NCBI GenBank assembly: GCA_035568395.1
Contig: DATMOF010000006.1
Coordinates: 28,393-92,392 of the forward strand
DNA from: Mucilaginibacter sp.
GTDB lineage: Bacteria > Bacteroidota > Bacteroidia > Sphingobacteriales > Sphingobacteriaceae
Direction of reading: 5' to 3'
Length of the DNA stretch: 64,000 bases
The position numbers and the translations under genes were made by a program. Shown piece after piece: positions 49,250 to 54,814 of this stretch. Position 1 is the stretch's first letter; every line of letters begins with the position of its first letter. The notes under the pieces were generated by a model. That model saw only the letters and a program-made list of their open reading frames with translations. It was not told the DNA's origin and searched no databases.

Positions 49250-52200
49250 ATGGTGGCCTGCAAGTTTTTCCCTCTCCTGGTATTGCGTACGCCTGTTTAT
49301 CCCATCAAAAATTATAATCCGGCCCAGCTTAAAGCATATATCAAAGATCCCTTTTTTCAAAAAGCACTGCTGCTGGCGAGCAGGGTACTGTATGTAGAAC
49401 TCAAAAAGGCCGGTTTTGATCACGGGAAGCTAAACAAGAAAGAAAGAACGGCTTTATTGAAATACCTGAACCGGATGTGTTTCCGCCCCACCCCATTCGG
49501 GCTTTTTTCTGCATTTTCCGCTACTGAATGGTCCGCAGACGGTCATTTGAATTTGGGCAGCAGCACTATACACATTAAAAACAGCTTTGCCGCGCAAATA
49601 AATGCGGCACAAATGGTAAAATCGGCAGCAGGGCCGGAAGACCACTGTTACCAGACCAATCAAACCATTTACCCGTACGGGGATGAAATCAGATATTTGG
49701 CCTGTTTCCCCAACGACCAGCAAAACGCTTTTGAGTTTTCCATCCGCTCAATTAACAGCCACGCCGTGTTAAAACAACTCTTCACCTTTTGCAAAAAAAA
49801 GAAGCATTTTGAAACGATAAAAAACTTTCTGGGTAGCAAGTCAGGGATAACCGCAGCGGAAGCTAAGCAATTGCTTAAAGAGCTGATCGACGTGCAGGCG
49901 CTGACCGACGACCAGGCACCCCATATAACCGGCCGGGATACCGTGCCGCTGATGAATGCAACCAGCATGGGTAAGCCTGAAGACCCGGCACCCGGGGCAC
50001 CGCCCGAGCAGCTGCCGGTTAAACCGGAAACGATCATGCCTGACGCTGATTATTATGTCAACATGGAAAAAGCGGCAACCGGCGCCTTGGATACCGGTTT
50101 CCAGGGGACGATCCTGAAAGGTGTTGAATGTTTGTATTGGCTCAACGTAGCCGGCTTAGCCGCGAACAACCCGTTATGGCAGTTTATACGCGATTTTAAC
50201 CAGCAGTTTGAAGGCCGGCTTATGCCTTTATTATATGTGCTGGACCCTGGTGCCGGCATAGGGTACAAAAACCTTGCCGGGAACGATGAAAAAAGCACAT
50301 TGCTTAGCGACATCAACTGGCAGGACAGGCACGAGAAGCGGACAAATACTGCCGGCTGGACAAATACCCATGCGCTGCTGCTTTCGAAATGGAAAAACAA
50401 TCATCCCGGCAGCTTCACCAAAGTCATTTCATTATCAGCCAGTGATATAGCGCCGTTAAAGATTATGGACAGCGCCCCTGCCCTTCCGCCAACCATATCT
50501 GTATTGTTCCGGGTCATAGACGACCAGGTGCTAATTGAAAGCGCGGGCGGGGCGACAGCCAATGCGCTGATCGGGCGCTTTACACCGTTTAATGACTGCA
50601 TCCGGCGGCTGGGGTCTTCCATTGCCGCAATGGAAACACAGCATAACCCGGATGTTGTCTTCGCAGAGATAGCTCATATTTGTGATTTCCACACAGCCAA
50701 TATCAACCGGCGCGAACATCTTTATCCTTACGAAATCCCCGTGATGGCTGGTTCCCTGGTGCCGGCGGCCCGTCAGATCCCCCTCAATGACTTATGGGTA
50801 ACTGTGATAAACGGCGAGGTTATCCTGCAGTCAAAAAGGTTAAACAAGCGGGTTATACCCCGCTTGAGTTCTGCTTTCAATCACACGAGAAACAATCTTT
50901 CCATATTCCGTTTCCTTTGCGACCTGCAGTACCAGGGCGTCCATGCCGGCCTTGGGCTGGACCTAAATGCATACTTTCCAAACCTGGATTATTATCCGCG
51001 CGTGGAATGCCTGAATACTGTGCTGGCTTTGGCAACCTGGCGGGTCTCCAGGCAACAATGGCAGTCCGTCCTGGACACGGCTGACCCTGGAGACCGGTCA
51101 GGGCGTTTTAGGGCGTTTAAAAAAAGCCTGCGCCTGCCACATTGGATCGCCCTGACGGTACACGACCATCAGTTGGTTTTTAATTTAAGCAAACAGGATC
51201 ATATTGATTTTTTCCTGCAGGTCATCAAAGACCAGGAGCAGGTCACGATCAAGGAATTTCTTTCCTCCCGTGAAAAAAAAGCGGCCGTCACGGACAAGTT
51301 GCATAAGCCGTTTATTAACCAGTTTGTCGCTTCACTGTACCATGAGCAGCAGGTATATACAGCAAAGGCCGCCCCTTTCCCTGAAACTGCTGATGAGCTG
51401 TTCCGGAAAGTACCGCCGGGAACGGACTGGCTGTATTTTAAAGTGTATTGTCATCCTTCCCGGCAAAACGAATTGCTGGCCACAACGATCAGTCCCCTTG
51501 TGAAAAGCCTGTTCAAAAGACATTTGATCAGTGCGTGGTTCTTTGTGCGGTATGCCGATCCCGAACCGCATGTACGTTTCCGGCTCAGGACGGGCAGGAA
51601 TAATGCTCATCGTGCATTCCGGTTCAGCTGCCGGATGCTCAACGGAGCAATCAAGCGGCAGGCCGTGCGCCATTACAGCATTTCCGTTTACGAACGGGAA
51701 CTGGAACGCTACGGCGCTCAAACGATTCCGATTTTTGAGCATATTTTTTTTTCAAGCAGCAAGCTGGTGCTGAGCTACATGGAGACACCCGATGCTGGTG
51801 ATACCAGCATGACGCTGGAAGACTTTGCTTTTTCAGATGTATGTGTGATACTCCACGCCCTTGGTTTCACTGACGAAACGGCGGTTCATTTCCTGCAGTC
51901 ATTGTCAAACAGCTTCATGAAAGAGTTTGAACAGCCCGACTTAAAGTATCAGCTGGATCTAAAATACAGAGCTTTGGAAAAACGGATCAGCCACGTTTTA
52001 GCAACTGACCGGCGAATTTCTGGCTCCCCCCGTATCCGTACCGCTTGCCGGGAATTTACCGGGTCGTTAAAAACGCTTTTTTCCGGGACCGGTTCCAAGC
52101 CACCCGCCCAGGTAGCGAAATGGACTGCCGACATCATACATATGCACCTCAACCGGTTGTTTACGGAGGAAGCGCGCAGGCAGGAACTGGTGGTTTATTA

Positions 52201-52276
52201 TTGCCTGTTCAAATATGAGAAATCACTGAGGATGCGGCAGCTGAAAAAGATATCGCAGGGTGGCTGCCCTGCATGA
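49250..52276 (+). CDS. Class I lanthipeptide-type dehydratase (LanB; glutamylation plus elimination domains)
   Basis: LRTP start; YLNRMCFRPTPFGLF; elimination-domain motifs WLYFKVY, WFFVRYADPEPHVRFRL, YERELERYG and HMHLNRL. Confidence 0.92.
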   Translation: MVACKFFPLLVLRTPVYPIKNYNPAQLKAYIKDPFFQKALLLASRVLYVELKKAGFDHGKLNKKERTALLKYLNRMCFRPTPFGLFSAFSATEWSADGHLNLGSSTIHIKNSFAAQINAAQMVKSAAGPEDHCYQTNQTIYPYGDEIRYLACFPNDQQNAFEFSIRSINSHAVLKQLFTFCKKKKHFETIKNFLGSKSGITAAEAKQLLKELIDVQALTDDQAPHITGRDTVPLMNATSMGKPEDPAPGAPPEQLPVKPETIMPDADYYVNMEKAATGALDTGFQGTILKGVECLYWLNVAGLAANNPLWQFIRDFNQQFEGRLMPLLYVLDPGAGIGYKNLAGNDEKSTLLSDINWQDRHEKRTNTAGWTNTHALLLSKWKNNHPGSFTKVISLSASDIAPLKIMDSAPALPPTISVLFRVIDDQVLIESAGGATANALIGRFTPFNDCIRRLGSSIAAMETQHNPDVVFAEIAHICDFHTANINRREHLYPYEIPVMAGSLVPAARQIPLNDLWVTVINGEVILQSKRLNKRVIPRLSSAFNHTRNNLSIFRFLCDLQYQGVHAGLGLDLNAYFPNLDYYPRVECLNTVLALATWRVSRQQWQSVLDTADPGDRSGRFRAFKKSLRLPHWIALTVHDHQLVFNLSKQDHIDFFLQVIKDQEQVTIKEFLSSREKKAAVTDKLHKPFINQFVASLYHEQQVYTAKAAPFPETADELFRKVPPGTDWLYFKVYCHPSRQNELLATTISPLVKSLFKRHLISAWFFVRYADPEPHVRFRLRTGRNNAHRAFRFSCRMLNGAIKRQAVRHYSISVYERELERYGAQTIPIFEHIFFSSSKLVLSYMETPDAGDTSMTLEDFAFSDVCVILHALGFTDETAVHFLQSLSNSFMKEFEQPDLKYQLDLKYRALEKRISHVLATDRRISGSPRIRTACREFTGSLKTLFSGTGSKPPAQVAKWTADIIHMHLNRLFTEEARRQELVVYYCLFKYEKSLRMRQLKKISQGGCPA

Positions 52277-52283
52277 GCGCGCA

Positions 52284-53357
52284 TCACAGAGCCACCAGCA
52301 AGTGAATGCGGAACATCTCGTCGCCGTCTGTGATGTTCAGGTCAAAATTATTGCCGTAATAATTGGTCAACCTGGTTCTCGTGTTTTCGATGCCGATGCC
52401 CCACCCGGCTGAACGCTGTTTCGTTTTTTTCAGGTTCTGACAGTGCATCTCCAGTATATGGTTATTACAGGTAATGGCGACCCGGGCCGGGAAATCCGGC
52501 TTTGATAAGTCACCATGTTTATAAATATTTTCCACAAATGAAAGTAATACCAGTGGTATAATGGCTTCTCCCTGGAATGCACCTTTCGCGGAAAGGCTGA
52601 TGTTTAAACGCTCCTTAAAGCGCAACTGGTTGATCTTCACCAGGTTTTTGAGGTGGTCAATTTCATTTTCCAGGGGCACCTTCCCGTTAACGCCCGCATC
52701 CGACAGCGAATAGCGCATCATATCCGACAGCAACAGAATAGCGCCCGCGGCAGAATCCGACAATTTCCTGACCGAATTATAAATTAAGCTCAACGTATTG
52801 AACAACAGATGCGGATTCAGCTGGGACCGCAGATAGGCGTTTTGTGCTTTGATCAGGTTCTTTTCCAGTTCTGCACTGTTTATTTCCTGCCGTAGCCTGA
52901 GATTTTCCAGCTCCAGGATCATTTTTCTTTGTTTTGCCATTATCCTGGCAAACCAATAGGCTATACTGAATCCAATAAAATACACCCCCCGGTAAATACT
53001 TTGGATGAAAAAAACTTCAGTATTAAAAACATTGGCCTTTGGGTGGATGTGAACATAAATGAGCAATTTACTAATAAGGAATTGCAGACAGAGATAAACA
53101 CTCAGCTCACCAACGAGCAATAGACCTATCCCCAGGTACCGGTATCTGAACCGACTGAAGATGAATTCAAAAAAACGGGCGTTAAAATAAAACAGGCAGA
53201 TATTAAGTGTATAATGTAAGGCATAATCCCAAATACTATAATCAGCCGTGCTGGCCAAATGGAGATACGATACTTCATAGGCCACGAATAGCAGCCAGAC
53301 AACAGCGTGCCTGCCCACTGTTGTAACAGTTCGCTTATAGTCCATAAAAACGGCCAC
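52284..53357 (-). CDS. LytS/YehU-type sensor histidine kinase
   Basis: N-terminal TM helices with no large periplasmic domain; H-box SQLNPHLLFNTL; FVENIYKHG and GIGIENTRTRL motifs. Confidence 0.92.
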   Translation of the reverse strand: MAVFMDYKRTVTTVGRHAVVWLLFVAYEVSYLHLASTADYSIWDYALHYTLNICLFYFNARFFEFIFSRFRYRYLGIGLLLVGELSVYLCLQFLISKLLIYVHIHPKANVFNTEVFFIQSIYRGVYFIGFSIAYWFARIMAKQRKMILELENLRLRQEINSAELEKNLIKAQNAYLRSQLNPHLLFNTLSLIYNSVRKLSDSAAGAILLLSDMMRYSLSDAGVNGKVPLENEIDHLKNLVKINQLRFKERLNISLSAKGAFQGEAIIPLVLLSFVENIYKHGDLSKPDFPARVAITCNNHILEMHCQNLKKTKQRSAGWGIGIENTRTRLTNYYGNNFDLNITDGDEMFRIHLLVAL

Positions 53358-53458
53358 AATTTAATTAATTGATTCCATCTATTGCTTATCGCGATTGGTG
53401 TAAAATGTTCTTTAACGCATCCACAAGCTTTTAATTTAATACTTAAAAATAACAAATT

Positions 53459-53602
53459 ATGAAAGTATTGAAAAAGAAGATTAATTTAAATGCAAAAAGT
53501 GTATTTAAATTTCAAAAGAGCATGCCAAAAGCAGGATCGCCGGAAACCACAGACCCAACTACTTCTACCAGTACCACGGTGTCGACACTTATGGGCTTTT
53601 AG
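53459..53602 (+). CDS. Putative RiPP precursor, 47 aa, Cys-free, Ser/Thr-rich core (not in ORF track)
   Basis: My translation: MKVLKKKINLNAKSVFKFQKSMPKAGSPETTDPTTSTSTTVSTLMGF*. Basic leader, AT-rich upstream region, and its own hairpin terminator. Confidence 0.8.
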   Translation: MKVLKKKINLNAKSVFKFQKSMPKAGSPETTDPTTSTSTTVSTLMGF

Positions 53603-53611
53603 AAAGGGGTT

Positions 53612-53651
53612 AGCGGTGTATTTTTGTTCATTTCAGGAATACACCGCTTTT
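53612..53651 (+). terminator. Terminator or attenuator after the precursor
   Basis: AGCGGTGTATT-N15-AATACACCGCT followed by TTT. Confidence 0.65.
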
Positions 53652-53743
53652 GCCATTTGGGCTGGGTTTGTTCTTTATTAAAATATTTTCAATATCGGTA
53701 TAGTTAACTGTAAATTGTGTAATTTTAATCATATTGCACTGAT

Positions 53744-54463
53744 ATGATTACTTGTTATGTCGTAGACGATGAATATCACGCAATAGAAATATTATGTGAT
53801 ATTATTGAAAATATCCCCGGGCTGCAGCTACTTGGCCACACCACAAACCCTTTAAACGCCCTGGAATTTATTACCACACAGGTTCCTCCGGACCTGACTT
53901 TTGCGGATATCAATATGCCGGAAATGACCGGAATTGAATTTGCTGCGCTGGTGAACGACTATACGACCGTTGTTTTTACAACTGCCTATGATCATTTTGC
54001 GGTAGAGGCTTTTGAAAAAGAAGCATTCGATTATTTGCTAAAGCCCGTTACCCGTGAACGCTTTTTAAAATGCCTGACGAAATACAGGAAAGGCCATAAA
54101 CCAAATATACAGGCTAAAGAAGAATATTTTTATATCAAAGGCGATATAAAAGGAAAAATGATACGTGTGATCACAGCGGATATTATGTATATCGAAGGCG
54201 CTTTAAACTACGTTATTATTCATATGGCGGACGGCAAGCACGAGATCACTTACCTGACAATGGGCGAATTGCAAAACCAATTGTCCGGGCATTTCCTGCG
54301 GGTTCACCGTTCTTTTATTGTCAATAGCGACAAGATCAAGACCGTCGGCGGAAACAGTATTGTACTGGACGACAAAACCGTCCTTAGCATTGGGACTGTA
54401 TATAAAAACGATGTTTTTGATTCGCTGAACAGGCGATTGATCAAGACGAAAAGAATACTGTAG
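53744..54463 (+). CDS. LytTR family response regulator
   Basis: Receiver motifs VVDDE, FADINMP, FTTAY and YLLKP; LytTR domain FLRVHRSFIVN. Confidence 0.95.
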   Translation: MITCYVVDDEYHAIEILCDIIENIPGLQLLGHTTNPLNALEFITTQVPPDLTFADINMPEMTGIEFAALVNDYTTVVFTTAYDHFAVEAFEKEAFDYLLKPVTRERFLKCLTKYRKGHKPNIQAKEEYFYIKGDIKGKMIRVITADIMYIEGALNYVIIHMADGKHEITYLTMGELQNQLSGHFLRVHRSFIVNSDKIKTVGGNSIVLDDKTVLSIGTVYKNDVFDSLNRRLIKTKRIL

Positions 54464-54728: not shown

Positions 54729-54740
54729 TCAATGTTTCCG

Positions 54741-54814
54741 CGGAATGGACGGGACTCGAACCCGCGACCCCGTGCGTGACAGGCACGTATTCTAACCAGC
54801 TGAACTACCACTCC
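54741..54814 (-). tRNA. tRNA-Asp(GTC)
   Basis: GGAGTGGTAGTTCAGCTGGTTAGAATACGTGCCTGTCACGCACGGGGTCGCGGGTTCGAGTCCCGTCCATTCCG forms a full cloverleaf with anticodon GTC; CCA is not encoded. Confidence 0.97.

Follow-up and report, generated by a model that had tools for sequence, protein, structure and literature searches.

We analyzed a four-gene locus at positions 49250–54463 of a 64-kb window (the whole stretch of DNA under study, 64,000 nucleotides) from a soil metagenome-assembled genome of Mucilaginibacter sp. (4.07 Mb, 99.8% complete). The locus encodes a full-length LanB dehydratase, a PF06580 histidine kinase, a 47-aa peptide without Cys and a LytTR response regulator. Comparison with related genomes makes it rather probable that the locus is a self-contained peptide-signaling cassette, in which a LanB maturase would supply a dehydrated, lanthionine-free peptide for agr-like autoinduction. 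Four sets of observations carry this reading: the small open reading frame (ORF) is a real gene, it is inherited together with LanB in genomes without LanC, the direct repeats in its promoter are conserved, and the peptide core diverges jointly with the sensor part of the kinase. An earlier note on this DNA, which had proposed a dehydrated signaling peptide, had placed all four genes correctly.

The small ORF (53459–53602, + strand) encodes the peptide MKVLKKKINLNAKSVFKFQKSMPKAGSPETTDPTTSTSTTVSTLMGF, which consists of a Lys-rich leader with the motif VFKFQK, a near-invariant Pro-Thr pair (P33-T34) and a Thr/Ser-rich core ending in GF. Its last 21 residues contain 12 Ser/Thr and no Cys, in agreement with the earlier count. 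The peptide matched none of the Pfam and NCBIfam models. A profile of the ORF searched against 5.8 billion proteins retrieved 81 clusters, all described as "hypothetical" and none with a Pfam domain; the named homologues include proteins of Pedobacter, Mucilaginibacter, Daejeonella and Olivibacter, which assigns the window genome to the family Sphingobacteriaceae. Among the 20 best LanB loci, 17 carried a homologous ORF, either divergent from the kinase gene or between the kinase and regulator genes, and further homologues in a second and a third batch of loci brought the total to 36 related loci with the ORF in the same position. The reading frame, start codon, leader motif and position are conserved in at least 36 loci of at least 12 genera, and also in Pontibacter and one further family. 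On these comparisons, the small ORF is a real gene of an unnamed conserved family.

Alignment of the family gave an N-terminus of the form MK...K..(K)KT-h-F-x-[FY]-K, with the leader motif hFxFKK, followed by a variable linker, the near-invariant Pro-Thr pair (usually [DNH]PT[TGN]) and a Thr/Ser-rich core of 12–25 residues whose last residue is often aromatic. The last 20 residues are 34% Ser and Thr, compared with 15% for the first 25, and 84 of the 90 family members (93%) have no Cys in their last 25 residues. A GG pair precedes the core in some family members only. A third, more divergent subtype, recognized by eye in four loci, has a KKTVFLFK leader and cores such as SETNTTELLTWTFTN. A conserved leader, a variable core and a co-inherited tailoring enzyme are the general features of the precursor of a peptide that is made on the ribosome and modified after translation (RiPP). 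Downstream of the ORF lies a terminator-like hairpin with a 15-bp stem and a T-rich tail (53612–53648, + strand; −25.1 kcal/mol, z −5.7, none of 200 shuffled sequences equally stable). The hairpin was found by folding the stretch and was not picked up by a simple terminator scan; it bears out the statement of the earlier note that the ORF has its own terminator.

The LanB gene (49250–52276, + strand) encodes a protein of 1008 aa that matched PF04738 (E 6e-82) and PF14028 (E 3e-57) in Pfam. A search of the PDB identified 9g04 (E 7e-42), NisB (4wd9, E 1e-22) and MibB (5ehk) as relatives of solved structure. The motifs RPTPFGLF, RYADPEPHVRFR, RELERYG and HMHLNR, which had been listed as signs of an intact enzyme, are all present, and the stretches FRPTPFGLFS, FFVRYADPEPHVRFR, VYERELERYG and IIHMHLNRL pair with NisB stretches in the alignment with 4wd9. 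These NisB stretches are taken to hold the glutamylation and elimination residues. The protein has the glutamylation and elimination domains of a class I lanthipeptide dehydratase. It is the only LanB of its genome; its nearest relatives share 33–40% identity with it, and no other precursor-like ORF was found upstream of or near LanB in the window. Three LanB orthologues of related loci contain a single in-frame stop codon (TAG in L005/L034 of genome G180, TAA in L019 of G033 and TGA in L014 of G197) and may be pseudogenes or assembly errors.

To describe the inheritance of the small ORF, we used a sample of 201 genomes of the same family. LanB homologues occurred in 52 of these genomes, all with at most 40% identity to the window LanB, and LanB lay next to LytTR and kinase genes in 19 of the 20 best loci. 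The ORF profile gave hits in 30 genomes. All 26 confident ORF-positive genomes (E ≤ 2e-4) were among the 52 LanB-positive ones; two of the four weaker hits (E 0.003–0.006) also fell in LanB-positive genomes, and the two in LanB-negative genomes matched in part, one within long open frames. No LanC at all was found in 17 of the 26 confident ORF-positive genomes, and in the remaining ones LanC adjoins a different LanB of approximately 1030–1075 aa. The small ORF was seen beside LanB, kinase and LytTR genes in 36 loci, and its co-occurrence with a LanC-less LanB, which the earlier note had proposed as a check, was found in 17 genomes. Within the same genus, LanB was present in 5 of 12 genomes, so the module is accessory.

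The window genome contains no match to the LanC model (PF05147), either in the window or elsewhere, which confirms and extends the earlier statement that the locus lacks LanC. The same model was positive in 20 of the 201 family genomes; therefore, the search works. The window peptide has no Cys from which thioether rings could be made. The claim that the product is not a lanthipeptide is supported by these data together with the Cys-free members of the family and the pairing of LanC, where it occurs, with another LanB. Six kinase/LytTR pairs are present in the window genome, and the single ORF family member of this genome (E 3e-10) lies only at the pair adjacent to LanB.

A maximum-likelihood tree of 62 LanBs, with support from the Shimodaira–Hasegawa-like approximate likelihood ratio test (SH-aLRT), contained a branch of 100% SH-aLRT support that separates 24 LanBs from 38 others. 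The side of 24 comprises 10 LanC-linked LanBs, 12 that adjoin only a kinase and LytTR, and 2 bare ones. The window LanB belongs to the side of 38, on which 36 have a family-type ORF adjacent; the two exceptions are one locus at a contig end and one that has lost its kinase gene. When the flanking proteins of 32 loci were clustered, only LanB, LytTR and the kinase recurred everywhere, in addition to the ORF; neither a transporter nor a protease was conserved, nor was any immunity gene or further tailoring enzyme. The proposal that the ORF is the precursor for LanB is supported indirectly by these comparisons, namely by the one LanB and one ORF of the window genome, the 26 of 26 co-occurrence, the restriction to one of six kinase/LytTR pairs, and the fully supported branch of the tree.

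A second lineage of LanBs of approximately 1015–1060 aa (L060, L061, L090, L091 and L093–L099) is nested among the LanC-linked LanBs. These LanBs adjoin LytTR and kinase genes, have no LanC nearby and often none in the genome, and are accompanied by no member of the ORF family.

The kinase gene (52284–53357, − strand) ends 8 bases past the LanB stop codon on the opposite strand. The protein is of the LytS/YehU type; it matched PF06580 (E 6e-20) and, weakly, GHKL. Its approximately 140 N-terminal residues (about 52938–53357) contain four hydrophobic segments with very short loops and form a four-transmembrane sensor, and the remainder is the catalytic half. The kinase had been described as membrane-only, which is not so: it combines a membrane-embedded sensor with a normal PF06580 catalytic half. 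The regulator gene (53744–54463, + strand) encodes a receiver domain and a LytTR domain (PF00072 and PF04397), and its nearest NCBIfam model, BtsR, scored below the cut-off.

The peptide and the sensor part of the kinase diverge jointly. Between two Pedobacter genomes, the DNA identity was 90–98% for the LytTR gene and 88–93% for the kinase catalytic half and LanB, compared with 54–56% for the kinase sensor and 24–72% for the ORFs. The protein identity of the two kinases jumps from approximately 50% to approximately 98% at residue 143. Other close genome pairs gave the same mosaic pattern, and orthologues shared 47–51% identity in the sensor versus 92–97% in the catalytic part. Other kinases of the same two Pedobacter genomes, paired as reciprocal best hits, served as controls. 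All three ORF-linked kinase pairs had divergent sensors (N-terminal/C-terminal identities of 47/97, 48/92 and 70/91%), and it is in the pair with the 70% sensor that the peptide cores are most alike. In four unlinked control kinases, no such contrast was seen (98/98, 84/87, 89/99 and 90/86). That only the peptide and the kinase sensor are hypervariable suggests a ligand and its receptor, and a hypervariable peptide and sensor between conserved flanks is the pattern of agr-type specificity groups.

A further kinase/LytTR pair shared by these two Pedobacter genomes (954–3304 of L147 and 698–3055 of L146) has a sensor with 48% identity and a catalytic half that is 100% identical. Divergent from this kinase gene is an ORF of approximately 85 aa, apparently for a small membrane protein, and the two may form an unrelated signal-receptor pair.

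Some genomes carry tandem arrays of 2–7 ORF copies that have the same core and slightly different leaders, for example TDPTANTILMTQSSMSNIFNK, present six times, and TNP(I/V)SDQSQTQVTLGTFAI, present seven times. Because the core is identical, the tandem copies point to the dosage of one product and not to a library. Moreover, Pontibacter and several Pedobacter genomes have extra ORF-kinase-LytTR modules without an adjacent LanB and a single LanB-linked module elsewhere, which fits one shared maturase that serves several signal channels.

The promoter between the divergent kinase and ORF genes contains two imperfect direct repeats, 21 nt apart (53369–53407, + strand), which form a candidate LytTR site: a distal repeat, ..TTCCATCTATTGC.., and a proximal box, GATTGGTGTAAAAT, at 53393–53406, 61 nt before the ATG. 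This architecture is kept in relatives. In 12 loci of the window type, a box TTGGTGTAA(A/T)A lies at −55 to −64 from the ATG of the ORF and is preceded, at a distance of exactly 21 nt, by a related half-site (GTTCATCTA-like); loci of the Pedobacter type have three repeats at 21-nt spacing. LytTR regulators, such as AgrA, ComE and PlnC/D, usually bind to direct repeats with a period of approximately 21 nt. The conserved promoter repeats, the joint hypervariability and the extra modules without LanB support, at the level of sequence comparison, the earlier proposal that the peptide is an autoinducer for the adjacent kinase.

We scored the window with a position weight matrix (PWM) derived from the other loci alone, without the window. 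The site in the ORF promoter scored 13.4. A second, stronger double repeat was found in the intergenic region divergent from LanB (48895–48932, − strand), where GTTATCTAT is followed 21 nt on by TTTCGTGTAATAA. It contains the best PWM site of the 64-kb window (48908, − strand, score 16.0), with a proper distal half-site 21 nt upstream, and a further box (48846–48859, − strand) holds the third-best site, at 48859 (score 13.7). Scores of at least 14 occurred at only 50 of 8.1 million genome positions. Both sites lie between LanB and a divergent protease operon (45469–48723), toward which they face. The operon encodes a 337-aa protein, an I42 chagasin-type inhibitor and a C1 papain-like protease, none of which has an obvious signal peptide, and it is possibly an extra, genome-specific member of the regulon. 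Similar extra sites were found near other, non-homologous genes in related loci, which suggests that the system has genome-specific outputs, as a regulatory circuit would be expected to have.

The distribution of the module was also examined in a phylum-wide sample of 401 genomes from 178 genera. The hits of the ORF profile in this sample were confined to the family of the window, and we did not adopt a phylum-wide distribution of the peptide family. Outside this family, 16 genomes were LanB-positive, and LanB adjoined LytTR and kinase genes in one of them, the distant relative G531. The ORF at this locus is Cys-free and family-like (MKTTATTAKFSFKKTTVTVFNKQVSGLKRYTDDDTTTTIINTQQTWIDTTSGFGF). 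A full module was found in Pontibacter mucosus (Hymenobacteraceae).

These data are consistent with the following mechanism. The 47-aa ORF would be translated into a ribosomal precursor whose conserved Lys-rich leader (hFxFKK) recruits the stand-alone LanB, and LanB would use Glu-tRNA to dehydrate Thr and Ser residues of the core to give a peptide with dehydrobutyrine (Dhb) and dehydroalanine (Dha) but without lanthionine. The leader would then be removed, possibly at the near-invariant Pro-Thr junction, which is a guess, and the peptide released. The adjacent kinase would sense the peptide through its four-transmembrane sensor and phosphorylate the LytTR regulator, which would bind the 21-nt-spaced direct repeats upstream of the peptide gene and close a positive loop. 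It would also bind upstream of a small number of targets that differ between genomes, in this case probably the protease operon. Among these steps, we infer the dehydration of the peptide, its cleavage site, its export route, its extracellular sensing and which regulator binds the repeats.

The peptide could instead be a bioactive end product of LanB, such as an antimicrobial or a surfactant, whose production the kinase and LytTR regulate in response to another cue or, as in nisin, to the product itself, without a dedicated cell-cell signal. Such a product would suit the efflux genes near the window locus and the kinase/LytTR pairs that also adjoin LanC-type LanB clusters of the family, and tandem precursor genes and cores that vary between species are found in bacteriocin loci as well. 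We consider it unlikely in view of the lack of conserved immunity or export genes, the single identical core of the tandem copies, the restriction of hypervariability to a presumable ligand and its receptor, and the several extra peptide-kinase-regulator modules per genome that share one LanB. The modules without an adjacent LanB can also be read in another way, in which the small ORF works with the kinase and is not a substrate of LanB: it would be an unmodified pheromone or a modulator of the kinase in the same cell, and LanB would modify another peptide. That no exporter was found, among the conserved flanks or as a C39 protein in the genome, and that the dehydration is deduced from the company of LanB both suit this explanation. 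It is made improbable by the presence of LanB in every confident ORF-positive genome and by the separate side of the tree held by the ORF-linked LanBs; furthermore, the window contains no second precursor-like ORF close to LanB and none is conserved near it, the core is richer in Ser/Thr than the leader, and the leader is conserved, as is that of RiPP precursors. Finally, the shortness of the ORF and its lack of a Pfam or NCBIfam match would be expected of a chance open frame beside a LanB left over from a decayed lanthipeptide cluster. This explanation has next to no probability: it is contradicted by the conservation of frame, start, leader motif and position in at least 36 loci and by the 81 database clusters, and LanB is intact with all its motifs.

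Several observations weigh against the signaling cassette that we favor. Kinase/LytTR pairs are found beside the LanC-type LanB clusters of the family as well and could be what normally regulates such clusters there, so the pairing of a kinase with LanB is not special by itself; what is special is that the peptide has no Cys and co-varies with the sensor. No conserved exporter or leader protease was found in the 32 loci, and the window genome has no C39 peptidase (PF03412), for which the control search was positive in 7 of 14 genomes. Sensor divergence was seen as well in two kinase pairs that are unlinked to the ORF family (46/79 and 48/100%), one of which adjoins a different small membrane protein; the signature is therefore not unique to this family. 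In one pair of loci the first core is identical and the sensor identity is only 61%. The repeats near LanB point away from LanB. In G531, a weak LanC-like gene (PF05147, 36.6 bits) follows the Cys-free ORF. The sequencing runs that carry the locus sequence are of metagenome DNA only.

The locus resembles the nisin (NisABTCIP-RK) and subtilin (SpaRK) systems in its LanB-type, Glu-tRNA-dependent dehydratase, its leader-bearing precursor and an adjacent two-component system that would, as there, sense the mature peptide and switch on the precursor promoter. It differs from them in that it has only four genes, without LanC and Cys and thus without lanthionine, without LanT/LanP and immunity genes, and with LytTR and a polytopic PF06580 kinase in place of the OmpR-type NisR with NisK. 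In the staphylococcal agr system (AgrBDCA), too, a small precursor and the enzyme that modifies it are combined with a polytopic membrane kinase and a LytTR regulator, four parts in all; that system also has direct repeats with a period of approximately 21 nt, bound by the regulator, and specificity groups set by a hypervariable peptide and sensor segment. In the locus, a LytTR domain is present and 21-nt-spaced repeats are conserved upstream of the ORF as a candidate site. In contrast to agr, the modifying enzyme is a LanB dehydratase and not the peptidase/cyclase AgrB, and it is not hypervariable; the kinase belongs to PF06580 and not to HPK10, and the host is a Gram-negative member of the Bacteroidota. 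The conserved set of LanB, kinase, LytTR and ORF includes no AgrB-type enzyme, and a Cys thiolactone is impossible because the peptide has no Cys.

The double-glycine pheromone systems of Firmicutes (ComCDE, BlpCHR and PlnABCD) are similar in having a small gene for a peptide with a cationic leader beside its own kinase and LytTR genes, direct repeats in the promoter, pherotype variation and, sometimes, several paralogous modules per genome. In those systems, an unmodified peptide is exported by a C39 ABC transporter that also cleaves it, whereas the window genome encodes no C39 exporter that could cleave a Gly-Gly leader and LanB is strictly co-inherited with the peptide. Goadsporin, thiopeptides, pyritides and linaridins contain dehydroamino acids that do not go into thioether rings, and the first three are made with a LanB-type enzyme. 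The goadsporin, thiopeptide and pyritide pathways combine split LanBs with YcaO or cycloaddition enzymes, and linaridins are made by unrelated dehydratases; in the present family, by contrast, no tailoring enzyme is conserved apart from a full-length LanB.

The class I lanthipeptides of Bacteroidota, such as the pinensins and the PedA15 peptides of Pedobacter lusitanus, come from the same phylum and the same enzyme family, and the window leader INLNAKSVFKF is loosely similar to their LxLxK-type leader (PMC7268733). Those systems differ in their LanC, Cys-rich cores and C39 exporters, and their LanBs lie across the branch of 100% support. Class I clusters have been reported as abundant in Bacteroidetes, with LxLxKx5L...GG leaders and C39 proteases (Walker et al., PMC7268733), and LanB/LanC clusters of Bacteroidetes have been listed (Marsh et al., PMC3091789). 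A review of two-component quorum sensing treats peptide autoinducers as a Gram-positive feature (PMC8895600). We found no description of a LanB and LytTR peptide system, or of peptide quorum sensing, in Bacteroidota in the literature, of which our coverage was incomplete, so that novelty is unproven.

In broader terms, the chances seem to us evenly balanced that Sphingobacteriaceae and some Cytophagales use a new class of linear, LanB-dehydrated, Cys-free pheromones, each with its own PF06580 kinase and LytTR regulator, which vary in a pherotype-like manner and act as parallel channels sharing one LanB. These would be the first family of peptide quorum-sensing systems in Bacteroidota and a new RiPP class with a full-length LanB as the sole tailoring enzyme. 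If so, soil and rhizosphere Bacteroidota would gain a cell-cell signaling language with strain-specific dialects, a lanthipeptide dehydratase would be able to act alone as a pheromone maturase, and a compact four-gene system would become available for receptor-ligand co-evolution and Dhb-rich peptide chemistry. For genome mining, a LanB without LanC in this family would represent a distinct functional type and not the debris of a cluster.

The genes that flank the module in the window were not shared by related loci. An MFS-HlyD-OEP(-TetR) efflux operon lies 0.7 kb downstream of the locus. It is not conserved in related loci. Counterparts of the C1 protease, the I42 inhibitor, the 337-aa protein, MFS-HlyD-OEP and TetR were all missing from 20 related loci; therefore, these genes were rejected as core parts of the module. 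The base composition gave no island signature at the locus. A tRNA-Asp gene (GTC; 54740–54814, − strand) lies approximately 280 nt past the LytTR gene.

In four related loci, the small ORF is immediately followed by a gene for a protein of approximately 400 aa that has no match in Pfam; the coordinates of these genes and of the one at the same position in G531 are 4957–6129 in L036, 13440–14612 in L040, 13396–14568 in L042, 13293–14546 in L047 and 4022–5233 in L136. A BLAST comparison gave no similarity between this protein and the LanC-like protein of G531, and neither has a homologue in the window genome. The idea that the approximately 400-aa protein is LanC-like was rejected on these grounds.

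A SusC/SusD-like outer-membrane pair recurs beside the module in several genera and in Pontibacter (12106–18014 in L036, 1410–5993 in L039, 11911–18704 in L046, 1148–8053 in L047, 22–4031 in L078 and 8927–16243 in L053, and beside the LytTR gene in L050, L066 and L073). The pair is often accompanied by a thioredoxin/AhpC-like protein, a MauE-family membrane protein and a protein of approximately 95 aa. It could be an uptake system for the peptide or its target, or its position could be due to chance, as SusC/SusD pairs are abundant.

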